Source of the DNA: Escherichia coli
GTDB taxonomy: Bacteria > Pseudomonadota > Gammaproteobacteria > Enterobacterales > Enterobacteriaceae
Direction: 5' to 3' (one strand)
Length of the DNA stretch: 64,000 nucleotides
Assembly: GCF_001677475.2 (NCBI RefSeq)
Contig: NZ_CP015229.1
Below are positions 24,336 to 45,743 of the stretch, one piece after another. A program made the translations under genes and the position numbers. The notes under the pieces were generated by a model that saw nothing but the letters and a program-made list of their open reading frames with translations, searched no databases and was not told the origin of the DNA. Within the stretch, counting starts at the first letter, position 1; each line of letters begins with the position of its first letter.

Positions 24336-26429
24336 ATGAAAGCAACAGAAGCCCGTTTACTCGATTTTTTAAAACGTTCGCAGCAGTTTGTTATTCCCAT
24401 TTATCAACGCACCTATTCATGGACAGAGCAACAATGTCGGCAACTTTGGGACGACATCATTCGTGCCGGAAAGCGTGACGATATATCCGCGCATTTTATC
24501 GGTTCGGTTGTTTATATAGAGCAGGGGTTGTATCAGGTTTCCGGTATTTCTCCGTTGCTGGTCATTGATGGTCAACAGCGGCTGACGACCGCAATGTTGC
24601 TGATTGAGGCTTTATCGCGCCATCTTGGCGAAGAAGAAGTTTTTGATGGCTTTTCGGCAATGAAATTGCGTAATTATTATTTACTCAATCCTTATGAGTC
24701 CGGTGAGAAAGGATTTAAATTACTGCTGACCGAGACCGATAAAGACAGTTTGCTGGTGTTAATAAAACAAAGACCAATGCCAGAAAACTATTCCCATCGA
24801 ATAATGGAAAATTTTAGTTTCTTTGATGAGCAAATTACCAAACTCGGTGATGACTTGATCCCCTTATGTCGTGGGTTAGCAAAGCTATTAATTGTCGATG
24901 TGGCGCTTAATCGTGGTCAGGATAATCCGCAACTGATTTTTGAAAGTATGAACTCCACCGGTAAGGCGTTAAGTCAGGCCGATCTGGTGCGCAATTTTAT
25001 TCTGATGGGCCTCGAACCAGAGCATCAAACACGGTTGTATGAAGATCACTGGCGTCCAATGGAAATCGCTTTTGGTCAGCAAGGTTACAGCGAATATTTT
25101 GACAGTTTTATGCGTCATTATCTGACGGTAAAAACGGGGGAGATCCCTCGGACAGATGAAGTCTATGAGGCATTTAAACTACATGCCCGCAGCCAGAGTG
25201 TTGCTGAAAAAGGCGTAGATCGGCTGGTTGAAGATATACACATCTACGCGGAGTATTACTGTGCAATGGCATTGGGTAAGGAAAGTGACAAATCGCTTGC
25301 CACGGCTTTTCAGGATTTGCGCGAGTTAAAGGTCGATGTGGCGTATCCTTTCTTACTGGCGCTTTATCATGACTATAAAAATGGCGTTTTGTCTCACGAA
25401 GATTTCCTGAGCATAATTCGTTTAATTGAATCTTATGTTTTCCGCCGTGCAGTGTGTGCAATTCCGACGAATTCTTTGAACAAGACGTTTGCCACTTTTT
25501 ATAAGATCATTAATAAAGAAAATTATCTGGAAAGCATTCAGGTGCATTTTATGAACCTGCCTTCGTATCGTCGTTTCCCCAACGATGATGAATTTAAACG
25601 GGAATTAAAAGTTCGCGATCTCTATAACTTCCGCAGTCGCAGCTACTGGTTACGACGACTAGAAAACGATAAACGCAGAGAGCGCGTGGAAGAGTTTACG
25701 ATTGAGCACATTATGCCGCAGAACGAAAACCTGTCGGCTAAATGGCGCGAAGAGCTGGGAAGCGACTGGCAGCGTATTCATAAAGAATTGTTGCATACGT
25801 TGGGGAATCTCACTTTAACGCGCTATAACTCCCGCTACAGTGACAGACCTTTCGCGGAAAAACGCGATATTGAAGACGGCTTTAAGCATAGCCCGCTCTA
25901 TTTGAATATCGGTCTTGGGCAGTGCGAAAAATGGGATGAAGCCGCCATTCGCGCCCGAGCCGATCGTCTGGCCGATCTCGCGGTTCAGGTCTGGCAAGCG
26001 CCTTCTCTTCCTGAAGAGGTATTAGCTGTTTATCGGGGTCAGCCGGAGAACAAAACCAGTTACAGCCTGAGTGATTATCCTTTCCTTGCTGATGGTTCGC
26101 ATAGCCGGGTGTTATTCGATCATCTTCGCGATGAAGTTATGCGCCTGGACGCAGGGATCACACAGGAAGTTTTAAAGCTGTATATTGCGTTTAAAGCGGA
26201 AACGAATTTTGTTGATGTTGTGCCGCAAAAAAGCCGACTGCGATTGTCGCTTAATATGCAGTTTCATGAACTGGTCGATCCGAAAGGTATTGCCAAAGAT
26301 GTGACAAATGTTGGGCGCTGGGGCAATGGTGATGTGGAAATTGGTTTCAGCGACCTCGCACAACTTCCTTACATTATGGGATTAATTCGTCAGGCATTTG
26401 AAAAACAGATGGAGAGTGCGTTGGTATAA
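24336..26429 (+). CDS. GmrSD-family (DUF262 + DUF1524/His-Me finger) putative type IV modification-dependent restriction endonuclease
   Basis: 697-aa ORF; N-terminal DUF262 signature (PIYQRTYSW...LLVIDGQQRLTT), C-terminal DUF1524-like region (FTIEHIMPQN...LGNLTLTRYN). Confidence 0.7.
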   Translation: MKATEARLLDFLKRSQQFVIPIYQRTYSWTEQQCRQLWDDIIRAGKRDDISAHFIGSVVYIEQGLYQVSGISPLLVIDGQQRLTTAMLLIEALSRHLGEEEVFDGFSAMKLRNYYLLNPYESGEKGFKLLLTETDKDSLLVLIKQRPMPENYSHRIMENFSFFDEQITKLGDDLIPLCRGLAKLLIVDVALNRGQDNPQLIFESMNSTGKALSQADLVRNFILMGLEPEHQTRLYEDHWRPMEIAFGQQGYSEYFDSFMRHYLTVKTGEIPRTDEVYEAFKLHARSQSVAEKGVDRLVEDIHIYAEYYCAMALGKESDKSLATAFQDLRELKVDVAYPFLLALYHDYKNGVLSHEDFLSIIRLIESYVFRRAVCAIPTNSLNKTFATFYKIINKENYLESIQVHFMNLPSYRRFPNDDEFKRELKVRDLYNFRSRSYWLRRLENDKRRERVEEFTIEHIMPQNENLSAKWREELGSDWQRIHKELLHTLGNLTLTRYNSRYSDRPFAEKRDIEDGFKHSPLYLNIGLGQCEKWDEAAIRARADRLADLAVQVWQAPSLPEEVLAVYRGQPENKTSYSLSDYPFLADGSHSRVLFDHLRDEVMRLDAGITQEVLKLYIAFKAETNFVDVVPQKSRLRLSLNMQFHELVDPKGIAKDVTNVGRWGNGDVEIGFSDLAQLPYIMGLIRQAFEKQMESALV

Positions 26430-26475: not shown

Positions 26476-26817
26476 TCAGGCGACTTTCTGTTTACCGGCA
26501 ATCACCCCAATAAATTCCTGCACCTGCTTTTGTTTACGTGCCGACAGCTTGCACACCTGGCGCAGTGACTGCATCAGTTCGCTCTCTTCGGGGGCGGGTG
26601 GTTGGGTGGTGAGGATAATACAGCCTTCCATCACTTTGACATCTACCGCCGTGCCAGTGGCAAAACCGGCGGCTTCCAGCCACTGACCTTTCAGGGTGAT
26701 GGCGGGAATGCGGCTGTAATCCGGGTAGCGACTCGCATAACTCACGGTTAATTGACGGTTATTTGCTGGGGAGACTTCTGCTTCGAACGGTTGTGCAATA
26801 GAATGCGTGTCAGTCAT
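26476..26817 (-). CDS. symE: SOS-induced toxin-like protein SymE
   Basis: Translation from ATG 26817, [34 protein letters not shown]... (113 aa), recognised as SymE; the track ORF extends upstream to 26874. Confidence 0.85.
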
Positions 26818-26885
26818 GATTACTATTCCTTTGAAATAGGGATTGTGATTAGCGGTGCGGGTGTGTTGGCGCACATCCGCACCGC
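26800..26885 (+). ncRNA. symR: Probable SymR antisense sRNA (approximate placement)
   Basis: Placed by homology logic only: SymR is described as antisense to the symE 5' end. A 9-bp perfect hairpin (gcggtgcgg/ccgcaccgc, about 26852-26884) lies at the expected 3' end. Ends not determined. Confidence 0.3.
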
Positions 26886-26894
26886 GCTAAATAC

Positions 26895-26910: not shown

Positions 26911-26991
26911 TAAATATGGGGAAAGTCCAGCTAAAAATTAATGAAAATAAGATGAAAATTAGCGTACAATATAATTTTTGGTGATGTGAAT

Positions 26992-27013
26992 AAAGCGGCT
27001 ATTTAGCCGCTTT
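26992..27013. terminator. Hairpin with flanking T-runs downstream of hsdS (possible bidirectional terminator)
   Basis: aaagcggct-attt-agccgcttt perfect stem, flanked by T-rich runs on both strands. Confidence 0.55.
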
Positions 27014-27037
27014 ATTGGTTTTATGAGGGCGAGGAAA

Positions 27038-28798
27038 TTAGTTTATCGCCGCGTCAGTGAGTGCGTCTGCAAGGTGCAGTTGGGTTTGCTGGGCGGATTG
27101 GATATGATTCTTTAATTCTTCACATAGTTTATAAAAAATATGTAGTTTACTCATTATTTTTTTTGCTTCTGAGCTAGGAGGAATAGCAACAGGACAACCT
27201 CTGAGCTGGGTTTTATTAATAGAGGCTAAATTAGTGGTTTGCTTACTTGCGTTAGCAAAATATTGTCTTGAGAATGGGCTATTCATATATGTTTCTAACC
27301 AATATGGATCAACATCTTGCCCTATATTTCGTCCTTTGAATACATGGTTTTGATTTGCTATATACCAGTCATGACACCATACTGTAGTTCTCCCGACTGT
27401 ATCCCAGTCGCCGCCTTCTGTGATCAATAAATCTCCCTTGACTACTTGATATTTTTCTTTTTCCTCAATAGGGATTTCAATCTGTTTAATTTCCGTAAGA
27501 TCAAGATATCCGCGTTGGACGTTTGCCACACGTAAATAAGGAACTTTTACCAAAGTTCTATTTGATAAATTTCTTCCTTTAGTGATACCACTTTGAATAT
27601 CAATAATATCTTCAAATAAACACCACTCCCACCCTTCCGGCAGTTCAAATGGTTTTTCCTCATCGCTAATTGGCGGCAACGGTTTTTGTTTTTTTATTTT
27701 TCCTTTTTTCACCAGTTGAGCTTTTTCCTGCGCAATTCGTTTGAGCAGTTCAGAGGCAGGTTCGTCATTCGGATCCTGCGGCACAAGTTTACCCATTACG
27801 GCCAGTTGCAGAATGGTCTGTTTTAATGCATCCACGCTGGCTTCGGTGGTAAATAGTGTGTCGAAATGCTCGCTAATACGCGCCCAGTTTTCAGCCAGTT
27901 CCTCGGCGTTTTGGCTGTCTGTAAGCGTTCCCAACAGGGTTTCAACCAGTTGCTGATGTGCGTCCAGACTGGCCAAGGATTGCTGTTCCAGTTGGTCGCA
28001 AAGGGACATGAGCTCCTGTACTTTGGATACAATACGTATTTGTTCTTGGTAAGGTGGTAAAATAACAGGGATCTCTTTTAACTTAGACGCTTTTATTCCT
28101 GTTGCGGTCATGCCTGTAGATTTGTCACTTAGTTGTGACTGGAAGGGGATCGCCAGGATTTGAATAAGCATAAAAGGGCTTATCTCTGGAGTATGCCATT
28201 GAAAACAGATAGAACGTTGAGCAAGAGCGAACTTTCCGTCTAAATCAATAATCGCTGCATTCCCCAGTGGTGCTTCAGTCGTGAATAAAATATCACCACA
28301 TTTAGGAAAGCCTCTTGTCATCCATGATATGTAATCTTCTTCAGATATGAACTCTTCTGGATTGAGATCAATATAGCCCTTTCTGATATTTTTTGCTGTT
28401 ATAAGCCTTATACCATTTTCTTTTTTATGTGGTGTTTTTCCTCGGTAATCGATGAATTTAGCTAAATTACCAAGTCTTATCCATGACCACTTTTCGGGGG
28501 TATCGATATAATATTCATTTCCATGGATATTAGTGCTTGCTGTGGTTTTCATACCATTATTGCGCGCTAATTCTTTTTTCCGTTCTTCATTACGCTTCAG
28601 CAGCTCCGACGCTGGTTCATCATTCGGATCCTGCGGCACTAGTTTACCGCGCACCGCCAGTTCCAGAATCAGCTCACGCAATTTCTTAATGCCATACAAA
28701 TCAATTTTACCGGAACTGCCGCGCCCGGCGGTGGAACGGGTTTGCAACGCCGAGGTCCAGGTTGCCATATGATCAACGATCAGCTTTTCCACACTCAT
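27038..28798 (-). CDS. hsdS: Type I restriction-modification specificity subunit HsdS
   Basis: 586-aa ORF with two target-recognition domains and a duplicated conserved spacer (LVPQDPNDEPASELLKR at both about aa 45 and about aa 335); ATG overlaps the hsdM stop (ATGA). Confidence 0.85.
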   Translation of the reverse strand: MSVEKLIVDHMATWTSALQTRSTAGRGSSGKIDLYGIKKLRELILELAVRGKLVPQDPNDEPASELLKRNEERKKELARNNGMKTTASTNIHGNEYYIDTPEKWSWIRLGNLAKFIDYRGKTPHKKENGIRLITAKNIRKGYIDLNPEEFISEEDYISWMTRGFPKCGDILFTTEAPLGNAAIIDLDGKFALAQRSICFQWHTPEISPFMLIQILAIPFQSQLSDKSTGMTATGIKASKLKEIPVILPPYQEQIRIVSKVQELMSLCDQLEQQSLASLDAHQQLVETLLGTLTDSQNAEELAENWARISEHFDTLFTTEASVDALKQTILQLAVMGKLVPQDPNDEPASELLKRIAQEKAQLVKKGKIKKQKPLPPISDEEKPFELPEGWEWCLFEDIIDIQSGITKGRNLSNRTLVKVPYLRVANVQRGYLDLTEIKQIEIPIEEKEKYQVVKGDLLITEGGDWDTVGRTTVWCHDWYIANQNHVFKGRNIGQDVDPYWLETYMNSPFSRQYFANASKQTTNLASINKTQLRGCPVAIPPSSEAKKIMSKLHIFYKLCEELKNHIQSAQQTQLHLADALTDAAIN

Positions 28799-30267
28799 CA
28801 GTTAACCTCCTTGCCAGACAGCGCAGCGCCAAGAATATCGCGCAGTTGATTACGCAGCGTCTGGATCTCCGCCTGCTGTTTTGCATACTGCGCTAACAAT
28901 TCATCTGGATCATGGCTGACGGTTTCCGCCTGATGTGGGTTTTTAATATCCAGATTGAAGTTACGCGCAATCACGTCATCAATGCTGACTTTCCACGCCT
29001 GCTCATTCTCGACGCGGCTGGCAAAACCATCGGCCTCGTTACCCCACCAGTCGATCTCCGCCTGAAACTCTTCAAACTTCATCGGCTTGGTTTTGCTGTA
29101 ATTTTTCACGCCCGCCGGATACGGATGCTCATAGAACCAAATCTCTTTGGTTGGCTGACCTTTGGTAAAGAACAACAGGTTGGTTTTAATGCCGGTATAG
29201 GGGTTAAACACACCATTTGGTAAACGCACGATGGTATGCAGGTTGCACTCTTCGGTAAGTAGCTTTTTGATTTTGGTTTTAACACCTTCGCCAAATAGCG
29301 TGCCATCCGGCAATACCACCGCCGCGCGACCGTTTTTCGCCAGTACTTCCACAATCAGTTGCAGGAACAGATCCGCCGTTTCGCGGGTTTGCATCTCTGC
29401 CGGAAAGTTCTTCTCAATACCGTCTTCTTCCGTGCCACCAAACGGCGGGTTGGTAACAATGACATCCAGTTGTTCATCCCAGGAGGAAAGCGGTTTGTTC
29501 AGGGTGTTGTCGTGACGAATTTGTACCGGTACTTCAATGCCGTGCAGCAGCATATTGGTGGTCGCCAGCAGGTGCGGAAGCTGTTTTTTCTCAACACCGT
29601 GGATCTGTTGTTGCAGCGTCTGATGATCGGCGACGCTCTTCACGTATTTGTTCTTTACATGATCGAACGCGCAGGCAAGAAAACCGCCCGTACCGCAGGC
29701 CGGGTCCATAATGGATTCGCCGAGTTTCGGATCAACGCGATCCACCATAAAGCGAGTGACGGCGCGTGGAGTATAGAATTCGCCCGCATTGCCCGCAGAT
29801 TGCAGATCTTTAAGGATCTGTTCGTAAATATCACCAAACAGATGGCGTTCGCTGGCGCTGGTAAAGTCAATTTCGTTCAGCTTGTTGATCACCTGACGCA
29901 GTAGCGTACCGTTTTTCATATAGTTATAGGCATCGCTGAACGCCTGCTTCACCACGTAGCCGCGTGGGTTTTTATCGATAGGCGCAGTGAGGTTTTTCAA
30001 CGCCGGGAACAGATCATCATTAACGAATTCCAGCAGGGAATCACCGGTAATGCCCTGAGCGTTTGCGGCCCAACTGCGCCATAAATAACGCTGTGGGATC
30101 GGATATTGATAGTTATCCTGCTCCAGTTCCAGCGCCTCTTCCTGGGCATCGAAGATTTTCAAAAACAGCAGCCAGGAGAGCTGACCGAGACGCTGCGCAT
30201 CGCCGTCCACACCGGCATCTTTGCGCATAATATCTTGTAATGATTTGATTACTGAACTGATAGACAT
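28798..30267 (-). CDS. hsdM: Type I restriction-modification N6-adenine methyltransferase HsdM
   Basis: N6-Mtase motifs (DPACGTGGFL; NPPFGG); start placed at ATG 30267 (MSISSVIK...), since the more upstream ATGs lie in or next to the hairpin that follows hsdR. Confidence 0.85.
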   Translation of the reverse strand: MSISSVIKSLQDIMRKDAGVDGDAQRLGQLSWLLFLKIFDAQEEALELEQDNYQYPIPQRYLWRSWAANAQGITGDSLLEFVNDDLFPALKNLTAPIDKNPRGYVVKQAFSDAYNYMKNGTLLRQVINKLNEIDFTSASERHLFGDIYEQILKDLQSAGNAGEFYTPRAVTRFMVDRVDPKLGESIMDPACGTGGFLACAFDHVKNKYVKSVADHQTLQQQIHGVEKKQLPHLLATTNMLLHGIEVPVQIRHDNTLNKPLSSWDEQLDVIVTNPPFGGTEEDGIEKNFPAEMQTRETADLFLQLIVEVLAKNGRAAVVLPDGTLFGEGVKTKIKKLLTEECNLHTIVRLPNGVFNPYTGIKTNLLFFTKGQPTKEIWFYEHPYPAGVKNYSKTKPMKFEEFQAEIDWWGNEADGFASRVENEQAWKVSIDDVIARNFNLDIKNPHQAETVSHDPDELLAQYAKQQAEIQTLRNQLRDILGAALSGKEVN

Positions 30268-30289
30268 GTTGTATTCCATGAAAAACAAG

Positions 30290-30320
30290 GCCTTCTGCAA
30301 CATGATGGTTGCAGAAGGCG
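30290..30320 (-). terminator. Hairpin plus T-run between hsdR and hsdM (terminator/attenuator candidate)
   Basis: gccttctgcaac-atgatg-gttgcagaaggc perfect 12-bp stem; on the minus strand it is followed by TTGTTTTTC immediately before the hsdM start. Confidence 0.5.
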
Positions 30321-30333
30321 CAAAAGAGAGTTG

Positions 30334-32766
30334 TTAAGCAGAGCGGGGCGGTAATTGGTAGATTTCGTTTTCCAGCTCGCTGAGCGCCTGATTATACCCG
30401 TTACGGTCGCCAAATCCGGTTTTAATAATCTCCGGTAAGGTGCCCATGCTGTCGAATGGTTTAAGTTTCAGCACCTGAATACTTTCGATCTCCTGTACGC
30501 CCGCATCGGCGTATTTATCCAGCAGATTATCGAGCACGGCTTGCGCTGCTTCAGAGTATTTTGTGAAGTAGTTCCGCTTGCGCACGTTCTCGGCGCGCTC
30601 TTTGCGGGTTAACGGCGGCTGACCATACACTACGTGGCAAAGCATGTCGAACGGGTCGAGATCTTTACCGACTTCTTCTGCCAGCACTTCCCAGATGATC
30701 CCCTGTTGCTCCAGCTCGTGAATGATCGCTTCTTTGCGATCGGCGTCCTGCCACTTGCGGGTAAAGTCATCCAGCGAGGCATATTCTTTGAGCAGTGTTT
30801 TACGGGTGTAATCTTTAAAGGATTCGGTAACCAGTTTTCCGTCGGCATCGTAATACTGAACGCGCTGTGCAATAACGCCCACCGCCACGCCATTGACGTG
30901 AAACTTGCGGATTTTCTTCTCGTCTTCTTCCGGAAGTGGGCCAACATCATCGGTATCGGTAACCTGGTATGGCGGCGCAGGCGGTTCATCAACGCCTGTC
31001 ACCTGCTCTTCGTCATGTTCGCTGATTTCTTCGAGTTTCTCTTCAAAATCAGATTCTGGATCGGCGATATCCTCTGGTGTGGTATCCATGACTTTTTCGG
31101 GAATGCCATCGAAACGCTCATCGGCAAACAGTTCGGTGGCTTTTTTAAAGTCGAGGATGGTAAACCAGAGTTTGCCGTAACGTTCGTCGATGCGTGTACC
31201 ACGACCGATAATCTGCTTGAATTTGGTCATCGACTGGATGTTCTGATCCAGTACTACCAGTTTGCAGGTTTTAGCATCCACACCGGTGGTCATCAGCTCT
31301 GAAGTGGTCGCGATAACCGGGTACGGTTTTTTCGGGTTGATGAAGTTATCCAACTGAGCTTTGCCAATTTCATCATCACCGGTAATTTTCATGACGTATT
31401 TGTCGTTCTTTTTCACCTGCTCCGGGTTGAGATTAACCAGGGCGCGGCGCATACGTTCTGCATGATCGATGTCGTTACAGAAGACGATGGTTTTATCCAT
31501 CGGGTTGGTGCGCTTGAGGTAGTCGGTAATGGTTCTGGCAACCAGTTCTGTGCGTTCGTCGATTACCATTGTGCGATCGAAATCTTTCTGGTTATAGATA
31601 CGATCGTCGATCACTTCGCCGTTTAAGTCAGTTTGCCCTTTGGTTGGGCGCCAGCCTTGCAGATCAACATCAATATCAACACGGACAACTTTATAAGGGG
31701 CGAGGAAGCCGTCTTCGATCCCTTCTTTTAGCGAGTAGACGTAAACCGGATCGCCGAAGTAATCCGTGCTGGAGACTTCATGGGTCTCTTTTGGCGTGGC
31801 GGTTAAGCCAATTTGGGTGGCGGAGCTGAAATAATCAAGGATCTCTCGCCAGGCGCTGTCTTCGGATGCGCTGCCGCGATGGCATTCGTCGATCACGATC
31901 AGATCGAAGAAATCTGGTGCGACTTGTTTAAACGCTTTTTGGTCTTCCTCCGGGCCAGTTATAGCCTGATAGAGTGCGAGGTGTATTTCATAAGCGGGAT
32001 CAATGGTGCGCCCGCTGACTTTGGTCATTGCCGTACCAAATGGCTGGAAATCATTATTTTTGGTTTGGTCGACCAGAATGTTGCGATCGGCAAGGAACAG
32101 AATGCGTTTTTTATTTTTTGATTTCCACAGGCGCCAGATGATCTGGAATGCGGTATAGGTTTTCCCTGTTCCGGTCGCCATTACCAGCAGAACACGGTTT
32201 TGCCCGTTGGAGACGGCTTCTATGGTTTTGTTGATTGCCTGAAGCTGGTAATAACGTGGCGATTTACCGCTGCCATCGTCGTAATAGTCCTGAGTAATCA
32301 CCGGAAGCTGAGCTTGTGTGTATCCTTTCCAGAGGCAGAATTTTTGCCAGAGTTCAGCGGGGGAGGGGAAGTCATCCAGCGTTATTTGCTTTTCAAGGCA
32401 TTCACCTTCGGCTGCGGTAGCATCGCGGAAGATAAAGCCATCACCGTTGGTGGCAAAAACAAAAGGAACGTCCAGCAGGCGCGCGTATTCAATGCCCTGT
32501 TGCATCCCTTTGCCAATTTCATGTTTGTTGGCTTTTGCTTCAATCACGGCTAAGGGAATGCCTGGTTTGTGATACAGCACGATGTCAGCAGATTTTACCG
32601 TTCTGCGTGCCGCAACTTTACCACGTACGATGACTTTACCGTCCCGGAGTTTGACCTCCTGTCTGATTTGCGTTGTGTTGTCCCAGCCTGCATTGAGAAT
32701 GGCTGGCATAACGCATTTGGTAATGATGTCTGCTTCCGTCAGGTTACTTAGGTTCAGTTCCGCCAT
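30334..32766 (-). CDS. hsdR: Type I restriction enzyme endonuclease/helicase subunit HsdR, short form (type IB/EcoAI-like)
   Basis: 810-aa ORF; PD-(D/E)XK N-terminus, SF2 helicase motifs (MATGTGKT; DECHR). The 810-aa length is well below the roughly 1170 aa I recall for EcoKI HsdR and matches what I recall for type IB. Confidence 0.85.
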
Positions 32767-32906
32767 GGGGTGTTCTCATCTAAATGCGATGCGCAAATTC
32801 TACACAGAAAAATAGATGAATTCATCTGTTCAAAGAGTATTATCAGCGTTAAGTCACTGTTTTAAAGGTATTCTTGAGTTTCATCAATAGTAGGATAAGG
32901 ATTCAT

Positions 32907-33875
32907 ATGGAGAATGTTCGGTTCTTGCAAGGAGTGAAACAATATTTTTGTACTAAGGCATTAGATGTCATTCTGCTAATTTATCTACTCCTTGGTTTTA
33001 TACTTCTCCCTTATAAATATCTGTGGAAAGATATTATTTTATCTCTGTGCTTTGTTGGTATTCTTCTTTATGCATTAGTGGAAGAAAATCGCATTACAGA
33101 ATATATGGGGTATTTTGTCAAGTTCAGTAATAAAAACAGTTTGAATAGTTGTGCTGCCTGGTGTTCACTTATTGCATGGTTTATATTTTTGTTTTTTGTG
33201 CTTTCAATTAATATTTTTCCAGTCAGTGTCTCTGTATACGTTTTTAGTGCTTTTTCAGTATTTGTTTTTCTGGGAGGTGTTTTTATTATATTAGAGTTGG
33301 AATTTAAAAATAATAAAAAATTAATGATTATTAGGTCTATGACTTTAGCTGTCATACCAATTATATATTTATTCTCAAGTAGTTTTTCTTCCAGTTTATT
33401 TTTAAGTTTGAGTAATCTAAATATCACACTATCACCATGGGTTGAGTATTTCTGGAAAGGGATGGCTTTTTTGTTTCTTTTCTTCATGTTAATGCAACTT
33501 ATTATCTATTTTACTTTTTTAACTCTGTGGGCTAAATTAAGTGTGTACAGGTTGTTTATACTTGCCGGAGCATTTATAGCATCTACTATTTTAGTGGTTT
33601 TTGCTTCAAAAAACGTAGAGAGTATTTCGTACTACGTTTTAAAAAGTACTATAGATTTTGAATGGCGCAGTCAGGTTAAATGTGGACAGTTGAATATTTC
33701 ACATCCGGATGAAAGGTATTTCGGGTTTAATACCGATAAATATACTGTATTTTATTCCAATAGAGAGGGTAAATGGGGGTTCAATGAGTTGAAATGTAAG
33801 AAAGGTTCTGACAGGAGAGATGCATATTCCATTGAGAATGTCTCAGAATATAACGTGCCAGGATGGCTGAAATAA
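32907..33875 (+). CDS. Uncharacterized AT-rich polytopic membrane protein (about 6-7 TM) with about 85-aa soluble C-terminal domain; sits where K-12 has mrr
   Basis: Track ORF 32874..33875 starts at TTG; preferred start ATG 32907 with AAGGA SD 5 nt upstream. Strongly hydrophobic N-terminal 240 aa, hydrophilic C-terminus; visibly AT-rich; no recognisable catalytic motif. Confidence 0.6.
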   Translation: MENVRFLQGVKQYFCTKALDVILLIYLLLGFILLPYKYLWKDIILSLCFVGILLYALVEENRITEYMGYFVKFSNKNSLNSCAAWCSLIAWFIFLFFVLSINIFPVSVSVYVFSAFSVFVFLGGVFIILELEFKNNKKLMIIRSMTLAVIPIIYLFSSSFSSSLFLSLSNLNITLSPWVEYFWKGMAFLFLFFMLMQLIIYFTFLTLWAKLSVYRLFILAGAFIASTILVVFASKNVESISYYVLKSTIDFEWRSQVKCGQLNISHPDERYFGFNTDKYTVFYSNREGKWGFNELKCKKGSDRRDAYSIENVSEYNVPGWLK

Positions 33876-33914
33876 GTTATCTTTATAATTAAATCGTAAA
33901 GGTTCTGGACATAA

Positions 33915-34106
33915 ATGAGCATGGTTAAACATAAACGGGGCACACTCTACACACTTGATGTGCAGCAAGAAGCTGAACTCAAGGCTTTGGTTAATAAATC
34001 CGACGATTATATTGATTACAGCGATATTCCTGCGTCTGGTAGCGATGCATGGGCTGACGCCAAACGCAGCAATTTTTTGCCAAATCCAGGTATTCACGCG
34101 CAATAA
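33915..34106 (+). CDS. Small BrnA/DUF4415-like protein (possibly truncated antitoxin-like remnant)
   Basis: 63-aa ORF 40 nt after the membrane-protein stop; motif IDYSDIPASGSDAWADAKR resembles the DUF4415/BrnA signature; no ribbon-helix-helix tail and no BrnT-like partner seen. Confidence 0.4.
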   Translation: MSMVKHKRGTLYTLDVQQEAELKALVNKSDDYIDYSDIPASGSDAWADAKRSNFLPNPGIHAQ

Positions 34107-34185: not shown

Positions 34186-35148
34186 TCACGCAGACTTCCT
34201 CAACCCCGCAAACGCCGCCCGAATCTCATCCTCCGGCAGCTGAATCCCGATAAACACCATCGTGCTATGCGGTTTTTCATCGCCCCACGGGCGGTCCCAG
34301 TCGGCGCTGTAGAGGCGCTGGACGCCCTGGAACAGCAGGCGGTTAGGTTCGCCGTCAATCCATAGCATCCCTTTGTAACGCAGCAGTTTATCCGCCGACT
34401 CCAGCAGCAGGTTTTCCATCACCCGGGAAACTTCGCTGATATCTACCGGGTAATCCAGTTCCACCACAATCGACGAAATATCGTTTTGTTTATCCGCGAT
34501 AAAGTGAAAACGTGGCTTGGTGCTGACGACGTTCTCTTCCAGCATAAAACCGTTGGTGTTGAACAGCAGGCCCAGGTCGATGTCGCCGTGGGTGACGGTG
34601 TAGACCGGTGCGCGGGCGTTGATGCGCGCCAGGCGTTCACGCAGTTTCTCTGCTTCGCCTGCGACGTCGGTTTTAGTCAGCAGAATACGGTCGGCGTAGC
34701 CAACCTGGGACTGGGCGATGGTGAACTGGTTCATCTGCTCATCGGCATGTACCGCATCCACCAGCGCAATCACGCCGTCCAGCAGGTAGCGCTGGCATAA
34801 AATCTCATGGGAGAAAAAGGTCTGAATAATCGGGCCGGGATCGGCCATGCCGGTGCATTCAATGACCAGACGGTCGAACTGAATATTGCCCTTGTCGAGA
34901 TTATCCAGCAGGTCGAGTAGCGCGTCTTCCAGCTCGTTGGAGCGCGAACAGCAGATGCAGCCGTTGGTCAGCGTTTTGATCTGCGTGGCGCGGTCGCCAA
35001 TCAGTTGATCATCAACGGAGACTTCGCCGAATTCGTTTTCAATCACGGCAATCTTGTAGCCGTGTTGTTCGTTAAGAATATGGCGCAACAGGGTGGTTTT
35101 GCCCGCGCCTAAAAAACCGGTGAGTAGGGTAACTGCAATCGGGTTCAT
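34186..35148 (-). CDS. yjiA: CobW/P47K-family GTPase YjiA
   Basis: Translation from ATG 35148, MNPIAVTLLTGFLGAGKTTLLRHILNEQHGYKIAVIENEFGE... (P-loop GTPase). Confidence 0.9.
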   Translation of the reverse strand: MNPIAVTLLTGFLGAGKTTLLRHILNEQHGYKIAVIENEFGEVSVDDQLIGDRATQIKTLTNGCICCSRSNELEDALLDLLDNLDKGNIQFDRLVIECTGMADPGPIIQTFFSHEILCQRYLLDGVIALVDAVHADEQMNQFTIAQSQVGYADRILLTKTDVAGEAEKLRERLARINARAPVYTVTHGDIDLGLLFNTNGFMLEENVVSTKPRFHFIADKQNDISSIVVELDYPVDISEVSRVMENLLLESADKLLRYKGMLWIDGEPNRLLFQGVQRLYSADWDRPWGDEKPHSTMVFIGIQLPEDEIRAAFAGLRKSA

Positions 35149-35158
35149 GCTCTCTCCA

Positions 35159-35362
35159 TTAACAACAGCGCATACCGCCTTTACCATCGCCGCCGTAGCG
35201 CGCGTTCTGGCGTTCGCGGAAGAATTCTTCATAGCTCATGTACGGCTTGTCGGGATGGTTGGTCTTCATATGCTCGACGTAGTTGTCGTAGTCTGGAATG
35301 CCAATCAACATCTTCGCCGCCTGGCCGAGATATTTTTTTGCCTGTCCTAAGTTACCAAACAT
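35159..35362 (-). CDS. yjiX: DUF466 small protein YjiX (BtsT-associated)
   Basis: 67-aa product [67 protein letters not shown]; the track ORF is longer only because it reads through the upstream REP. Confidence 0.85.
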
Positions 35363-35410
35363 TTTGCCTTCCAGATATGCGTAAAGCCCGGAAGGTCCGG
35401 GCTGGGGATT

Positions 35411-35488
35411 TGCCGGATGCGGCGTACACGCCTTATCCGGCCTACGATAGACACTTTGTAGGCCGGATACGCGCAGCGCATCCGGCAA
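35411..35488. repeat. REP element pair between btsT and yjiX
   Basis: gccggatgcggcgtacacgccttatccggcctac ... gtaggccggatacgcgcagcgcatccggca. Confidence 0.75.
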
Positions 35489-38035: not shown

Positions 38036-38548
38036 TTAAATCGCAGCTTCCATTTCCAGCATCACCGGATGGAAACGGCGTTTAAAGTAGATAAGTCCGT
38101 GACCTTCTGCACTGAGGATGATGTTTTTAATCTCCACCAGATACACCAGATGTGTGCCAATTGCCTGCACATCGCGGATCTCACCTTCAAGACTGGCCAG
38201 CGAACCTTTCAGCACCGGCTGCGCCAGCGGACCTTTTTGCCAGCATGAGAGGCTAAAACGCTCTTCCATCGCCATGCCTGTCATGCCCGCGAAGTGGCGT
38301 GCCATCAGTTCCTGCTCATGGTTGAGGACGTTGACGCACAACTTGCCGTTGCCCTGAAAAACCGGGTTCATCGCACTGTTGGCGTTAATGCACACCATCA
38401 GCGACGGTGGTGTATCCGTGACCGAGCAGACAGCCGTTGCCGTAATCCCGCATTGTCCGGCGTCGCCCTCGGTGGTGATAATATTTACCGCTGCCGACAG
38501 GCTGGCCATCGCGTCACGAAAGCGCAGGCGTTGTTCATCTAATTGCAT
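38036..38548 (-). CDS. hpaC: 4-hydroxyphenylacetate 3-monooxygenase, flavin reductase component
   Basis: 170-aa product MQLDEQRLRFRDAMASLSAAVNIITTEG... from ATG 38548 with GGAGG SD. Confidence 0.9.
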   Translation of the reverse strand: MQLDEQRLRFRDAMASLSAAVNIITTEGDAGQCGITATAVCSVTDTPPSLMVCINANSAMNPVFQGNGKLCVNVLNHEQELMARHFAGMTGMAMEERFSLSCWQKGPLAQPVLKGSLASLEGEIRDVQAIGTHLVYLVEIKNIILSAEGHGLIYFKRRFHPVMLEMEAAI

Positions 38549-38565
38549 CTTAACCTCCTGCTGCA

Positions 38566-40128
38566 TTATTTCAGCAGCTTATCCAGCATGTTGATATCGT
38601 CGTTGTTGTGCAGGTGCGGCACAGTCCAGCCGTTCTGGTCGTATTCCGACAGGCAGCGATCAACCATCGCCATCATCTTGTCCATATTGCCGGAGCTTTG
38701 TGCCTGGCGCAGACATTGCAGGCGAATCTCATCCTGGCTACCGGAGTAGTTGATTTCATACAGTTCGTGACGACCACCAAATTCGCTGCCAATGGCATCC
38801 CACATCAGTTTGAGGATCTTGATGCGCTGGACGTGATCCATACCATTCGAACCGCGCACATACTTCGCCAGATACTGGTCGATCTGCGGATTGTTCAGGT
38901 CACGGGCACTGGAAGGGAGATAGATCAGGCCACTGGTAACGTTGCGTTCGATAATGTTTTTGATCTTCGCGTAGGCCATTGGTGCCAGTACGCGATAGGT
39001 TTGCAGTGCGGCATGATCCGGTAAATAAGCCCCGTTGACCCACGGCGTCGCTTCAGAACACATCGAGTCACTCAATGCCCAGAAGGTGTTGCGCCACGCC
39101 ACCACTTCACCGAGATCGGCCTGCACACCACGGAACTCCAGGGTGCCGGTACATTCGAGTGATTTTTTCAGCAGTGCCGTAATGAAGTCTAATTTCACTG
39201 CCAGGCGCACACAGGCTTGCAGCGGATACATACGGGCAAAACCACCTTCCATTGTCCAGCGACGGCAGCGATCGAAATCGCGGTAGATCAGTACGTTTTC
39301 CCATGGGATCAGCACGTTATCCATCACCAGAATCGCATCGTTCTCATCAAAGCGGCTGGAGAGCGGGTAGTCGTACGGCGAGCCGGTAGCACCCGCGACC
39401 ATCTCATAAGAGGCGCGGGAGATTAATTTCACGCCATCGGCATCCATTGGCGCAACGAACATCAGTGCGAAGTCCGGGTTTTCGCCCATCACTTGTGCCG
39501 AGCCGAAGCCAATCATGTTGTAGTGAGTCAGCGCCGAGTTGGTGGCAACCACTTTCGCACCGCTGACGATAATCCCGGCGTCAGTCTCTTTTTCCAGCTT
39601 GATGTAAACGTCTTTCACTTTATCGGTCGGCAAATGACGATCGATCGGTGGGTTAACAATCGCGTGGTTAAAGTAGAGGCCAGTTTCCTGAATACGGGTG
39701 TACCAGTTACGGGCGTTCTGCTCGAACTGACCGTAAAAGCCCGGATTCGCGCCCAGTGCGCAACCGAAAGCAGCTTTGTAGTCTGGGGTACGGCCCATCC
39801 AGCCATAGCTCAGGCGTGACCACTCAGCGATGGCGTCGCGTTGCTGGCGCAGGTCGTCGGCACTTTTCGCCACGCGGAAGAATTTATGGGTATAGCCGCC
39901 GCTGCCGGTGTCGGTGTTCCAACACAGAGAGTCCTGCATCTCCGGTTTGTGTAGCGCGTCGTACAGTTGGGCAACAGACGCTGCCGCATTACGAAATGCC
40001 GGATGAGTGGTGACGTCTTTCACTCGCTCGCCGTAGATATAGATCTCGCGACCATCCTGCAGGCTTTTCAGATACTCTTCCCCGGTGAACGGACGTTGGG
40101 TACTGGCGCGGAAATCTTCTGGTTTCAT
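38566..40128 (-). CDS. hpaB: 4-hydroxyphenylacetate 3-monooxygenase, oxygenase component
   Basis: 520-aa ORF recognised as HpaB (MKPEDFRASTQRPFTGEEYLKSLQDGREIYIYGERVKDVTTHPAFRNAA...). Confidence 0.9.
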   Translation of the reverse strand: MKPEDFRASTQRPFTGEEYLKSLQDGREIYIYGERVKDVTTHPAFRNAAASVAQLYDALHKPEMQDSLCWNTDTGSGGYTHKFFRVAKSADDLRQQRDAIAEWSRLSYGWMGRTPDYKAAFGCALGANPGFYGQFEQNARNWYTRIQETGLYFNHAIVNPPIDRHLPTDKVKDVYIKLEKETDAGIIVSGAKVVATNSALTHYNMIGFGSAQVMGENPDFALMFVAPMDADGVKLISRASYEMVAGATGSPYDYPLSSRFDENDAILVMDNVLIPWENVLIYRDFDRCRRWTMEGGFARMYPLQACVRLAVKLDFITALLKKSLECTGTLEFRGVQADLGEVVAWRNTFWALSDSMCSEATPWVNGAYLPDHAALQTYRVLAPMAYAKIKNIIERNVTSGLIYLPSSARDLNNPQIDQYLAKYVRGSNGMDHVQRIKILKLMWDAIGSEFGGRHELYEINYSGSQDEIRLQCLRQAQSSGNMDKMMAMVDRCLSEYDQNGWTVPHLHNNDDINMLDKLLK

Positions 40129-40378
40129 GTCGACCTCTACAGTATTAATCGGAATACGATTGTTAATTTTGTGTGTTGTTTTTGTTATTCAATTGAAGCT
40201 TGCAGAGGCGATTACGGGAAGACACTTTTGGGACAATGGCTGGTACTTTTCAGGTCGGGTACGGTTTTGTGATCGAGGTCGCTTTTAGCAATTTTTGACG
40301 TTACTAAATCCCCTTGCTCCAGGCGGAGAAAGGGGAATAGCAGGTGGTGCCTGGTTTCCCGTTAAGGCTAAGGGATTT

Positions 40379-41269
40379 TCACGTCACAGGTACTTTTTTG
40401 GCACGATAAGCACTGGGCGAGCAACCGACTAAGCGATTAAAAAAGCGGGCAAAATAAGCCGGATCTTTAAAACCGAGTTGCCAGGCAATATTGTTCACGG
40501 CGTTATCAGAAAACAGCAGCAGCCGCTTGGCTTCTCGCAGCTGCCTGTCGAAAATCAACCGTTTTGGCGGACGGTTGGCAAAGCGGCGGCAGATGTCGGT
40601 GAGGCGTGATTCGGTGATATGCAGTTCGTTAGCGTAATCCGGTACTGTCCAGTGCTGATGAAAATGGCTTTCAATCAGCATATTAAAACGCTGGAACAGT
40701 TTTAATTCTCCGCGCATTCCGCTGGCGGCATGGTCGTCGAGTTTTGCGTTACGCAGCAGTAGGGTGAACACTGCCTGTGCCAGTAACGTCAGGGTGTGTT
40801 CCCGTCCAGGCAGTTGTTCCACCGATTCCCGCTCTATCAGTTGCCAATAGTGTTCCAGCGCCGCCAGTTCGTCGGGTTTATCTGCCAGTGACAGGCAAAT
40901 CCCCGGGAGGCCGAAGGTTTCCCGAGTGCCCGGATAAAGAACTTCCAGCAGGGGCCAGATCAGATCTTCCCGTACCGTCAATACATGACCGTCGGCGTCA
41001 GACTCCGTAATAAACGCATGAGGTACTGACGGCGGCGTCAGGACAAACAGGGGCGCTTCCACCGAGTAACGATGATCGTCAAGCTGTAGCTCAATCTGTC
41101 CGCTATTGAGGAAATGCATCTGAAAGTACTGTTCGTGGCGATGTGGCAGCATATGGCGGCCAAAAAATGCCGCCATGCGGGCGAACGACTGATAATGCAC
41201 ATCGTCCGTGCCCAGGCTTTCATCGTACTCTTTGCTGATATCAATATTGGCAATCTGAGGGTCACACAT
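40379..41269 (-). CDS. hpaA: AraC-family activator of hpaBC
   Basis: 296-aa ORF, C-terminal AraC HTH; position between hpaX and hpaB. Confidence 0.85.
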   Translation of the reverse strand: MCDPQIANIDISKEYDESLGTDDVHYQSFARMAAFFGRHMLPHRHEQYFQMHFLNSGQIELQLDDHRYSVEAPLFVLTPPSVPHAFITESDADGHVLTVREDLIWPLLEVLYPGTRETFGLPGICLSLADKPDELAALEHYWQLIERESVEQLPGREHTLTLLAQAVFTLLLRNAKLDDHAASGMRGELKLFQRFNMLIESHFHQHWTVPDYANELHITESRLTDICRRFANRPPKRLIFDRQLREAKRLLLFSDNAVNNIAWQLGFKDPAYFARFFNRLVGCSPSAYRAKKVPVT

Positions 41270-41278
41270 CGTCGTTCC

Positions 41279-42655
41279 TTACGGGGTCGCTCGCGGACGG
41301 GAGGACTGCATTGGAATCGCCCAGATAATCCCCGCACCAATCACCAGCAGCGCGGCAACAAACCACAATCCACTGTTAAAGCTGCCGGTCAGATCTTTCA
41401 ACCAGCCGATCATAAACGGACTTAACGCTGAACCAATGTTGCCAGTGGCGTTGATCACCGCAATACCGATCGCTCGTGCCCGCAGGCTGATGGATTGATC
41501 CGGTGTTGTCCAGAAAATCGCCATTGCGCTGAATGATCCGGTCGAAGCCATAATGATCCCCAGCATCTGGATCATGTTGTGATCAGTTGCCGAAGCCAGT
41601 AACCAACCAGCGGCAGCGAACAAATAAGGAAGGGCGGTGTGATGCCTTCGTTCCTGGCGGCGATCTGAGTGACGGCTCCAGTAGATCATCCCGAGAATGG
41701 TACAAATCTGCGGTACGGCGGCCAGCAGGCCGATGGTGATATTACTGCTGCCCTGATTAAAACTTTGCAGGATCTGCGGTGTCCAGATGCTGATCGCACT
41801 AAGTGTGTTGGTCAGGCAGAAATACGCCAGGGTATACATCATCACCACCGGAGTGAAGATCTCCCGCCACATACTGCGTTGTTGCATGGCGTGGTGGCTG
41901 ATGGCTCCCTCTGGCTGAACCAGCTTCAGACGATCGTTATCCATCATCTCTTGCAGGCATTTTTTGTCTTCTTTCGTCAGCCACTTAGCTTTGTCCGGTG
42001 AGTCATCAAGCCAGAACCACACCATGACGCCGAGTAATACCGACGGGAAGCCTTCCAGCAAAAACAGCCACTGCCAGCCTTTTAATGCCATTACACCATC
42101 CAGCGACAAAATGTAGCCGGAAACGATCGAGCCCAACGCTGTCGTTACCGGCATTGCTACCATAAACAAGGCGTTGGCACGGGCGCGGAAGTAGGCCGGA
42201 AACCAGAAGGTTAAATAGAGCAGAATGCCAGGCAGAAAGCCGGCTTCGGTAATGCCAACCAGTATACGCAGTACGTATAAGCTGGTGGGGCCAGTGGCAA
42301 ACATGGTAGCAGTAGAGGCGATGCCCCAAAGCACCATGATGGTGGCGATCCAGCGCCGCGCACCGACAATACTCAGCATAATGTTGCTGGGAATGCCGAA
42401 GATGACATAAGCGGCATAGAACAGGGTGGTAGCTAGGCCAAACATGGTGGCGCTCAGACCGAGATCGCGTCCCATCGTTAGTCCGGCAAAGCCGATGTTG
42501 ATGCGATCAAGGAACGAGAAGATAAACAGCACGAACAGAAAGACGATCAGGCGGCGAAATAGCTTCTTAATAACCGCCTGTTGTCCGGCAGTCAGCGCTT
42601 TATGCTGATTCGCCGGATCGATACTCTCCGGTATGGCAGGTGAGGTGTCGCTCAT
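41279..42655 (-). CDS. hpaX: 4-hydroxyphenylacetate permease (MFS)
   Basis: Translation from ATG 42655, MSDTSPAIPESIDPANQHKALTAGQQAVIKK...; 12-TM MFS. Confidence 0.85.
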   Translation of the reverse strand: MSDTSPAIPESIDPANQHKALTAGQQAVIKKLFRRLIVFLFVLFIFSFLDRINIGFAGLTMGRDLGLSATMFGLATTLFYAAYVIFGIPSNIMLSIVGARRWIATIMVLWGIASTATMFATGPTSLYVLRILVGITEAGFLPGILLYLTFWFPAYFRARANALFMVAMPVTTALGSIVSGYILSLDGVMALKGWQWLFLLEGFPSVLLGVMVWFWLDDSPDKAKWLTKEDKKCLQEMMDNDRLKLVQPEGAISHHAMQQRSMWREIFTPVVMMYTLAYFCLTNTLSAISIWTPQILQSFNQGSSNITIGLLAAVPQICTILGMIYWSRHSDRRQERRHHTALPYLFAAAGWLLASATDHNMIQMLGIIMASTGSFSAMAIFWTTPDQSISLRARAIGIAVINATGNIGSALSPFMIGWLKDLTGSFNSGLWFVAALLVIGAGIIWAIPMQSSRPRATP

Positions 42656-42699
42656 TTTTCTTCCTCTAATGGGATTTTTGTAGGGTACGACAAGGTTTA

Positions 42700-42829
<130 letters not shown>

Positions 42830-43618
42830 TTAATACACGCCGGGCTTCACGGCGGTGGCCTGCGCACCAAACCGTGCTGCCAGCGCTTCGGCGGCGCGGG
42901 CGAGCAGGGTGGTGTCAACGCCGACGGCGACAAACAGCGCGCCCAGTTCCAGATAGCGTTTTGCCAGTTGCTCATTGGCGATCAGGATCCCCGGTGCTTT
43001 GCCCGCTTCGCGGATCTGCACGATCGCCTGCTCAATAGCGGCCTGTACTTCCGGGTGCTGCGGATTACCGGCATAACCCATATCGGCGCTCAGATCCGCC
43101 GGGCCGATAAACACGCCGTCTACTCCTTCCACGTCCAGAATCTGCGGTAAGTTCTTCATTGCCTCACGCGTTTCGATCTGCACCAGCACGCACATTTGAT
43201 CGTTGGCTTTTTGTAGGTAATCAGGAATACGATTCCAGCGCGAGGCGCGGGCCAGCGCACTGCCCACACCGCGAATACCGGCGGGGGGATAACGGGTGGC
43301 GCGTACCGCTTCACGGGCTTCGTCGGCGTTTTGTACCATCGGCACCAGTAAGGTTTGTGTGCCGACGTCCAGCAGTTGTTTGATTTGCACCGGATCGTTC
43401 CACGACGGACGCACTACCGGCTGGCTGGGGTAGGGCGCAATCGCCTGTAGCTGGGTGAGCACGGTTTGCACGTTATTCGGCGCGTGCTCACCGTCGATCA
43501 ACAACCAGTCGAATCCTGCTCCGGCCAGTAACTCTGCGCTGTAGCTGCTACTCAGCCCCAGCCATAATCCGATCTGCGGGCGGCCTGCTTTCAGCGCCGC
43601 TTTAAAACTGTTTTCCAT
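42830..43618 (-). CDS. hpaI: 2,4-dihydroxyhept-2-ene-1,7-dioate aldolase
   Basis: Translation from ATG 43618, [48 protein letters not shown]... Confidence 0.9.
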
Positions 43619-43628
43619 CGTTCTCTCC

Positions 43629-44432: not shown

Positions 44433-44439
44433 AGCGATA

Positions 44440-44500
44440 TCCTGTGGCATTGCCGGATGGCGGCTGCGCCTTATCATCCGGCCTGGAAGCTGGTGCAAAT
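44440..44500. repeat. REP-like palindrome between hpaF and hpaH
   Basis: gccggatggcggctgcgccttatcatccggcc palindrome in the 68-nt gap. Confidence 0.5.
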
Positions 44501-44881
44501 TTATTTAAACAACGCGTGTACGTTGTTCTGTTTGAAATTCAACGTCGGGTGCAGCTCTGCAATCTCAAATGAAAGCGCCAGGTAACGGCTCTCCATCAGT
44601 GAGGCGAAGTGCGTTTTAATCAGATCAAACAGCATTTCGCCCACTTCCTGACGGCTTTCCAGACTGCGTCCGCTGCCGATTTTTAGTGTCATATGCACAA
44701 AGGCGTAATCGTGCTTGCCATCAGCCATTTGCCAGGTATCGATCCAGTGCGCCCGGCTACGTATTCCCCCAAGCGGAAAAATCCCCGTCGCCGCCAGTGC
44801 AGTGTTAACACTGGCAAACAGCTCAGGTAAGCGGGCTTCTTGACGAATATTTTCAGTACATTCCACGATAAAGTGCGGCAT
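44501..44881 (-). CDS. hpaF: 5-carboxymethyl-2-hydroxymuconate isomerase
   Basis: 126-aa [29 protein letters not shown]... (CHM isomerase). Confidence 0.9.
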
Positions 44882-44890
44882 GGTGGTTCC

Positions 44891-45742: not shown

Positions 45743-45743
45743 A

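Follow-up and report, generated by a model that had tools for sequence, protein, structure and literature searches.

A type IB (EcoAI-family) restriction–modification allele in the Escherichia coli hsd slot and a conserved terminator-like hairpin between its hsdR and hsdM genes

The three genes at positions 27038–32766 of a 64,000-nucleotide (nt) stretch of the Escherichia coli contig NZ_CP015229.1 (assembly GCF_001677475.2; the whole stretch is called the window below) apparently constitute a complete and functional type IB (EcoAI-family) restriction–modification (R-M) system, which occupies the chromosomal hsd slot and is allelic to the EcoKI system of K-12. Judging by the sequence, the probability of this reading is about 0.93. 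The type IB identity of the locus is in itself already known, as this is a textbook hsd allele. Type IB alleles at the E. coli immigration control region (ICR) have been known since EcoA (1985), and those of O157:H7 and CFT073 have already been catalogued. The main value of the result is a correct annotation, and otherwise it has little; what remains of interest is the position of the hsdMS transcription start, as a conserved putative terminator lies 22 nt upstream of hsdM.

In type I systems, HsdS binds a bipartite target via two target recognition domains (TRDs), and the M2S1 complex methylates one adenine per half-site. At an unmethylated site, R2M2S1 performs ATP-driven DNA translocation and cuts at a distance. 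The R-M genes of the window are three co-oriented open reading frames (ORFs):

30334–32766, minus strand: hsdR, restriction/translocase subunit of the EcoAI family, 810 amino acids (aa)
28798–30267, minus strand: hsdM, N6-adenine methyltransferase subunit, 489 aa
27038–28798, minus strand: hsdS, specificity subunit, 586 aa

Assignment to the type IB family

The HsdR protein passes the NCBIfam model NF046051 (EcoAI/FtnUII family type I restriction enzyme subunit R) with 1193.8 bits at a cut-off of 550 bits and stays below the cut-off of the EcoKI-type model NF008521 (217 bits versus 729). The exact HsdR sequence is present on at least 1000 public contigs, and its UniRef name is 'Type I restriction enzyme EcoAI endonuclease subunit'. 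HsdR and HsdM are 99.9% and 99.8% identical to their counterparts in CFT073, the enzyme of which, EcoCFTI, belongs to type IB and has the EcoAI specificity with the target GAG(N7)GTCA (PMC8287963). The HsdR and HsdM proteins of CFT073 and O157:H7 show 99% identity to those of EcoAO83I, whose R and M subunits are in turn 99% and 98% identical to those of EcoAI versus 26–28% to those of EcoKI; as a rule of thumb, R and M identity exceeds about 90% within a family and is about 20–35% between families (PMC2481252). By the identity of HsdR and HsdM, the system thus falls within type IB. The other marks of this type are also present: an HsdR of about 810 aa with an EcoEI_R_C domain, the type IB domain order of HsdS, in which a direct repeat is found around residues 50 and 325, and the R-M-S gene order at the serB-linked chromosomal hsd locus. 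As R and M are almost identical to those of the family, the subunits would very likely complement those of EcoAI and cross-react with antibodies against them, which is the strictest family criterion.

An earlier reading of this DNA, made without database searches (the sequence-only reading), had preferred type IB to type IA and had named best matches to type IA enzymes as the result that would speak against it. The matches go the other way: the identity to K-12 EcoKI is 27% for HsdR, 29% for HsdM and about 20% for HsdS. The supporting remarks of that reading, namely that HsdM and HsdS do not resemble those of EcoKI and that an HsdR of 810 aa is well under the 1170 aa of EcoKI, are confirmed as well.

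It is hardly conceivable that the locus belongs instead to type IA (EcoKI/EcoBI-like) or to one of the families IC, ID and IE. The chromosomal slot and the gene order are shared with EcoKI, and TRD2 of HsdS gives a sub-threshold match of 121 bits to the EcoKI-type HsdS model NF007278 (cut-off 662); however, this TRD2 is merely 23% identical to that of EcoKI, and neither an HsdR of about 1170 aa, nor a passing score with the EcoKI-type model, nor a high R and M similarity to type IA was found. Type IC systems (the EcoR124I family) have the order hsdM-hsdS-hsdR, are usually plasmid-borne and encode an HsdR of about 1030 aa. Here, the order is R-M-S, the locus is chromosomal, and the EcoR124 matches are weak for HsdM (66 bits, compared with 140 bits for EcoKI HsdM) or absent for HsdR (no match at E below 1e-5). 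Among solved structures, the closest come from Vibrio vulnificus YJ016, namely the HsdR fragment 3H1T (531 bits) and HsdM 3UFB (415 bits). The identity of 99.8–99.9% to the published type IB system of CFT073 argues against all other families alike.

That the system is a silent or decaying remnant and not an active one is very improbable. In other strains, disruption of neighbouring defence genes is common (GmrSD is split in most genomes), and in one E. coli genome insertion sequence elements lie inside hsdS. Against this, the three ORFs are intact with their catalytic motifs, the exact proteins recur in many isolates, and experiments have shown the R and M of CFT073, which are nearly identical, to be active (PMC8287963).

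Gene anatomy

HsdR contains the Pfam domains HSDR_N, ResIII/DEAD, Helicase_C and EcoEI_R_C, the last of which (PF08463, E = 6e-37) covers residues 648–803 at the C-terminus. Its motifs are intact: EAK of the PD-(D/E)xK nuclease motif at residue 76, GTGKT (helicase motif I) at residue 199 and DECH at residue 293. HsdM has the HsdM_N and N6_Mtase domains and the intact motifs DPACGTGGF at residue 188 and NPPF at residue 273, and HsdS has two Methylase_S stretches. With PADLOC, the locus matches type I R, M and S over their full length.

The longest hsdM ORF (28798–30303) would encode 501 aa. This start was rejected: ATG 30303 lies inside the loop of the hairpin described below and is not conserved in relatives, and the stretch 5' of ATG 30267 differs by 8 nt in length, as well as in sequence, among close relatives. 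ATG 30267 is the annotated start in O157:H7, CFT073 and most assemblies. The sequence ATGTCnAT at this start is invariant in 26 Enterobacterales relatives, in which the sequence upstream of it is variable in content and in length (65–75 nt; 100 nt in one locus). Because of the annotation, the invariance in relatives and the hairpin-loop position of ATG 30303, we take ATG 30267 as the true start. The gap between hsdR and hsdM, previously put at 30–65 nt, is 30 nt to the ATG of the longest ORF and 66 nt to ATG 30267, in agreement with that estimate.

The hsdM stop and the hsdS start overlap by 1 nt (TGATG), and a ribosome-binding site, AAGGAGG, is located 8 nt upstream. With this overlap and a strong internal ribosome-binding site, hsdM and hsdS are coupled in translation; EcoKI has the same layout (PMC3510504).

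Modular structure and predicted specificity of HsdS

HsdS consists of an N-terminal conserved region, TRD1, a central conserved region, TRD2 and a short C-terminal conserved region, which is the type IB layout. In the conservation profile, residues 1–100 and 263–388 are conserved, and residues 101–262 are variable. An exact direct repeat of 19 aa, GKLVPQDPNDEPASELLKR, is found at residues 51–69 and 336–354 and extends as a near-exact match to 33 aa. When aligned with each other, the halves of HsdS (residues 37–295 and 322–583) show 29% identity (E = 1e-25), and at the DNA level the repeat copies are 82 nt long, 80% identical and 855 nt apart. The modules are located as follows:

28588–28669, minus strand: HsdS repeat copy 1, 82 nt, residues ~44–70, including GKLVPQDPNDEPASELLKR (51–69)
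28013–28591, minus strand: TRD1 module, residues ~70–262, variable among alleles
27733–27814, minus strand: HsdS repeat copy 2, residues ~329–355, including GKLVPQDPNDEPASELLKR (336–354)
27119–27634, minus strand: TRD2, residues ~389–560

The TRD1 module starts directly after the first repeat copy. The sequence-only reading had described a duplicated 17-aa spacer flanking two variable domains. The duplication is real, although its exact length is 19 aa, and each copy precedes one variable domain instead of the copies flanking both. The arrangement of the repeats reflects the domain order D2-S1-D1-S2 of type IB HsdS (PMC3874165).

The modularity of HsdS can be seen in a comparison of about 120 homologues. 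About 55 E. coli HsdS clusters have TRD2 in common with the protein of the window at 99–100% identity and TRD1 at only 17–25%; in about ten clusters, the N-terminal region and TRD1 are common at 99–100%, and TRD2 is 16–23% identical. TRD1 is 99–100% identical to that of a minority E. coli allele group (P0055, P0059–P0070) and 18–19% identical to the CFT073/EcoAI-type domain. TRD2 is 100% identical to that of the O157:H7 allele and 24% identical to the CFT073/EcoAI-type one. The HsdS allele is a combination of the minority-group TRD1 module with the O157:H7 TRD2. The identity by region is as follows:

HsdS N-terminal residues 1–69: CFT073 99%, O157:H7 99%
HsdS residues 70–100: CFT073 19%, O157:H7 19%
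HsdS TRD1: CFT073 18%, O157:H7 27%
HsdS central region: CFT073 97%, O157:H7 97%
HsdS TRD2: CFT073 24%, O157:H7 100%

This allele set is a clear illustration of TRD shuffling. Specificity swapping by recombination between alleles within the conserved regions is seen to occur in nature here, which is in line with one half of the earlier suggestion that the repeat is the substrate for swapping. The other half does not stand: the repeat copies are not themselves the substrate, because recombination between the copies in one gene would delete TRD1.

Since both TRDs differ from those of CFT073, the target should differ from GAG(N7)GTCA of EcoAI. TRD2 is identical to that of O157:H7, and the 3' half-site should therefore be common with the O157:H7 enzyme. 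Literature searches for the recognition motif of the O157:H7 type I enzyme returned none. Inference of a half-site from EcoKI was rejected, as TRD2 and TRD1 are 23% and about 26% identical to the EcoKI domains. The O157 TRD2, the same as in the window, is 21% identical to the ATGC-reading TRD2 of EcoAO83I (PMC2481252). The central spacer region of HsdS, 97% identical to that of CFT073, predicts the 9-bp adenine interval typical of type IB. The combination of TRD1 and TRD2 may specify a not yet characterised target sequence. The strain is predicted to restrict and methylate a target unlike those of EcoKI and EcoAI, which would affect the efficiency of transformation and conjugation.

Genomic setting and distribution

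The locus sits between symE/symR (26476–26888) and yjiA (34186–35232), and the order symE-hsdS-hsdM-hsdR-...-yjiA agrees with that in K-12, O157:H7 and CFT073. This slot is the ICR of E. coli; it is occupied by EcoKI in K-12 and by type IB systems in O157:H7 and CFT073. The 5.7-kb locus is matched in 1003 of the 5426 complete E. coli genomes (about a fifth), and in 885 of these 1003 genomes the query coverage is at least 80% at 95–99% identity. According to a 2025 EcoSal review, type IB systems make up 11% of ICR loci (PMC12707154). NCBI already contains an HsdS of exactly this sequence (E. coli, 36 contigs). In four assemblies with the exact HsdS the neighbours are alike, except for a truncated GmrSD call in one of them (L003).

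The hairpin between hsdR and hsdM

The intergenic gap is filled by one element:

30280–30319, minus strand: intrinsic-terminator-like element, a perfect 12-bp stem and a T-run between hsdR and hsdM

Its stem (30319–30290) is formed by GCCTTCTGCAAC and GTTGCAGAAGGC, which pair perfectly over 12 bp with 7 GC pairs around a 6-nt loop and are followed by the tail CTTGTTTTTC; this is the perfect hairpin with a T-run that the sequence-only reading had pointed out. The stem starts 14 nt past the hsdR stop and ends 22 nt ahead of the hsdM ATG. The 86-nt stretch around it folds with –24.6 kcal/mol (z = –4.2), and none of 200 shuffled sequences folds as well.

Relatives of HsdM were sampled at 80 loci, with each species represented by a single genome. 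The R-M-S family spans Gammaproteobacteria with an HsdM identity of 76–100%. A stable hairpin (–15 to –30 kcal/mol) with a T-run ending 22–29 nt before the hsdM ATG was found at all 30 enterobacterial-type junctions (from the set L003–L036 and L039, in which a few loci have non-enterobacterial record titles), and these 30 loci have at least four different stem sequences. Overall, the hairpin with the T-run is present in 38 of the 58 contiguous loci. In an alignment of 17 hairpin sequences, 92% of the cells are paired, compared with 29–52% in partner-slid controls, and in seven of the 12 stem pairs both sides are altered, i.e., compensatory change can be noted. The contigs with HsdS homologues of Erwinia and Aeromonas were uninformative for the junction, since a contig end intervenes in one case and the genes are organised differently in the other. 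The hairpin is covered by no Rfam family; in the 24–36 kb region, only symR exceeds the threshold.

Twelve Vibrionaceae loci have 1.1–2.8 kb of other genes between hsdR and hsdM, and in these the GC hairpin stays 11–45 nt after hsdR. Because the hairpin remains beside hsdR when genes are inserted before hsdM, it belongs to hsdR. Most likely, the hairpin and T-run are the intrinsic terminator of the hsdR transcript. The sequence has what defines such a terminator, a GC-rich stem-loop followed by a U-run downstream of a gene, and termination is predicted. An apparent terminator after hsdR has also been reported for EcoKI (PMC12707154).

Transcription of hsdMS

Only 22 nt lie between the hairpin and the hsdM ATG, and in Enterobacterales hsdMS transcripts would therefore have to pass the hairpin. 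These 22 nt contain no promoter-like site and no –10-like box, which agrees with the earlier remark that an hsdMS promoter, if separate, must lie inside the hsdR 3' end or be read through an attenuator. The following features are relevant to transcription of the locus:

30391–30396, minus strand: perfect TATAAT within Tyr-Asn codons of the hsdR 3' end, on the 5' side of the hairpin and ~125 nt ahead of the hsdM ATG
32839–32866, minus strand: candidate hsdR promoter TTTAAA-16-GATAAT, 73–100 nt upstream of the hsdR ATG, by consensus match only
26989–27016, no strand assigned: terminator-like palindromic 12-bp hairpin with A/T-rich flanks, 22 nt past the hsdS stop and before symR/symE

The nearest gene-strand promoter-like match to hsdM is TCGACA-17-TATGGT at 30650–30622, and promoter-like sites in the consensus scan are no commoner than in shuffled sequences. 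The TATAAT at 30391–30396 is a weak candidate for the –10 box of hsdMS and comes without a –35 box. It is kept only in the E. coli/Klebsiella/Citrobacter clade, and by chance alone each strand of a gene as long as hsdR would contain about 0.6 perfect TATAAT hexamers. The synonymous-site conservation in the last 25 hsdR codons, determined in 25 Enterobacterales loci, is 0.65–0.67 versus a gene mean of 0.565 (standard deviation, SD, 0.061), and the only peaks above 2 SD are at codons 1–20, 391–410 and 636–655. Sixteen Vibrionaceae-type loci (within L043–L076) have a perfect extended –10 box, TGnTATAAT, at a fixed distance of 40–44 nt upstream of hsdM; enterobacterial loci are without such a box before hsdM. 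A search of the accessible literature found no account of a type IB hsdMS promoter or terminator.

EcoKI of K-12 has a 9-bp hairpin (L001 11072–11094, minus strand) on the 3' side of a TATATT box, and from the end of this hairpin to the hsdM ATG there are 22 nt. The passage of hsdMS transcripts through such a hairpin may thus be general. Enterobacterial hsdMS transcripts would either begin ahead of the hairpin or within it and run through it, or would come from the hsdR promoter by read-through. This leaves three conceivable arrangements: hsdMS may have a promoter within hsdR, with some of the transcription reading through the hairpin; it may depend entirely on read-through from the hsdR promoter; or its transcripts may start within the hairpin.

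The hairpin might be mainly a 5'-untranslated-region element or attenuator of hsdMS, with the promoter in the hsdR 3' end; read-through would then set the amount of M and S relative to R, or the stem-loop would stabilise the mRNA. We regard this as rather unlikely. In most contiguous loci, including those without a T-run, the stem ends at a constant 20–30 nt before the hsdM ATG, and the spacing of the EcoKI hairpin, which lies downstream of its TATATT box, is the same 22 nt. No promoter would fit between the hairpin and hsdM, and in the E. coli clade the perfect TATAAT stands about 125 nt upstream of the hsdM ATG. On the other hand, in separated loci the hairpin goes with hsdR, and hsdM there has TGnTATAAT 40–44 nt upstream and no hairpin. 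The TATAAT within hsdR is confined to one clade, the hsdR 3' end is without clear synonymous-site constraint, and the constant distance also follows from a compact layout of a terminator followed by a ribosome-binding site. It is more doubtful still that hsdR, hsdM and hsdS form a single operon transcribed from the hsdR promoter, with the hairpin as a leaky terminator and without a separate hsdMS promoter. The lack of a promoter-like site near hsdM, the short gap of 66 nt and the common orientation of the three genes suit such an operon; however, it would supply M and S in smaller amounts than R, whereas a type I system needs the reverse to establish itself safely. In classical EcoA genetics, hsdMS was reported to be a unit separate from hsdR. 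Vibrionaceae relatives have an obvious hsdM promoter box, and EcoKI has two promoters (PMC12707154).

Our reading of the locus as an active type IB system, with the hairpin as the hsdR terminator, has to be set against several observations. The consensus scan found no hsdMS promoter near hsdM, and the synonymous conservation of the hsdR 3' end is just about 1.5–1.8 SD above the gene mean. Some non-enterobacterial relatives have the hairpin at the same distance from the ATG but without the T-run, and the hairpin could also act on the hsdM mRNA. A terminator directly before hsdM is awkward, as the need for M and S is no smaller than that for R. Finally, the R-M activity and the 9-bp adenine spacing are predictions from sequence only.

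Speculatively, an ancestral order of terminator, TGnTATAAT promoter and hsdM, as in Vibrionaceae, could have been compressed in Enterobacterales, so that the hairpin became a tunable attenuator for all hsdMS transcription. We consider this scenario unlikely; if it were true, an attenuator hairpin would couple R to M and S and set their ratio, which would be an undescribed layer of type I R-M control. With the hairpin read as the hsdR terminator, what is modestly new is the family-wide conservation of this hsdR-proximal element, together with the negative outcome of the search for an hsdMS promoter in the compact enterobacterial version of the locus.

Neighbouring features of the window

An intact GmrSD-family type IV restriction enzyme of 697 aa (GmrSD_N, GmrSD_C and DUF5655) is encoded at 24336–26429 on the plus strand, where K-12 has mcrBC. 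In most complete E. coli genomes, the annotation divides this DNA (96.8% identity) into two ORFs, and likewise the corresponding genes in O157 and CFT073; the copy of the window may be one of the functional versions. The symE toxin gene (26476–26888, minus strand, true product ~113 aa) is located directly downstream of hsdS, as in K-12, and the symR antisense antitoxin RNA lies at 26812–26888 on the plus strand (Rfam, 93 bits).

Between hsdR and yjiA, a low-GC (32%) insert at 32874–34106 replaces mrr of K-12. It contains a 333-aa ORF, which by its sequence resembles a multi-pass membrane protein, and a small ORF called 'antitoxin' in RefSeq. The 333-aa ORF has no match in Pfam, NCBIfam or PADLOC. 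Altogether, 512 complete E. coli genomes have the insert, which may be defence-island cargo.

Farther away, a cluster for 4-hydroxyphenylacetate catabolism (hpa; 38036–48502, minus strand) is located between btsT and tsr, which adjoin in K-12. It encodes the HpaB hydroxylase, a LigB-type dioxygenase, an aldehyde dehydrogenase, an FAA hydrolase, the HpcH aldolase, an MFS transporter and an AraC regulator. An inverse autotransporter of 1746 aa, IAT_beta with many Big_1/Invasin_D3 repeats, is encoded at 5796–11036 (minus strand), and a pentapeptide-repeat protein of 657 aa is encoded at 13602–15575 (minus strand) in a low-GC (32–40%) stretch. A sub-threshold Rfam match to naRNA4 (44.6 bits, gathering score 59.5) was found on both strands at 35385–35442, inside the yjiX-like ORF 35159–35488 beside btsT; a REP-like palindromic element is one possibility.

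Comparison with known systems

The prototype of type IB is EcoAI of E. coli 15T–, together with the isospecific EcoCFTI of CFT073. EcoCFTI is like the system of the window in the length of HsdR (810 aa) and HsdM (489 aa), in the gene order, in the slot and in the 66-nt gap between hsdR and hsdM. Its HsdS is alike in residues 1–69 (99%) and in the central region (97%) and also has the direct repeat, but its TRDs are only 18% and 24% identical. The repeat extends over about 70 aa in CFT073 and O157 versus about 33 aa here, residues 70–100 after the first copy being replaced. The type IB system of O157:H7 (EcoO157ORF5947P/EcoKO157ORF5307P) is 99.6–99.8% identical in R and M, 100% in TRD2 and 96% in the C-terminus of HsdS, and its flanking genes are the same; the differences are in TRD1 (27% identity) and in the cargo between hsdR and yjiA, which is DUF262/HNH in O157 and the low-GC 333-aa ORF here. 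EcoAO83I, EcoEI, CfrAI and StySKI belong to the same family by the published criteria, with the HsdS repeat starting near residues 50 and 325 (PMC2481252).

EcoKI, the type IA system of K-12, shares with the system of the window the position between symE and yjiA, the R-M-S order and the 1-nt overlap of hsdM and hsdS. It also has a hairpin ending 22 nt before hsdM, even though the proteins are less than 30% identical. In EcoKI, however, HsdR is 1170 aa long versus 810 aa here, the gap between hsdR and hsdM is 200 nt versus 66 nt, and HsdS has no N-terminal conserved region, its domain order being circularly permuted (PMC3874165). The HsdR fragment (3H1T) and HsdM (3UFB) of Vibrio vulnificus YJ016 represent the same R-M family at roughly 70–85% identity. 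What sets Vibrionaceae loci apart from that of the window is the TGnTATAAT box ahead of hsdM and, in many cases, the presence of additional genes that separate hsdM from hsdR.

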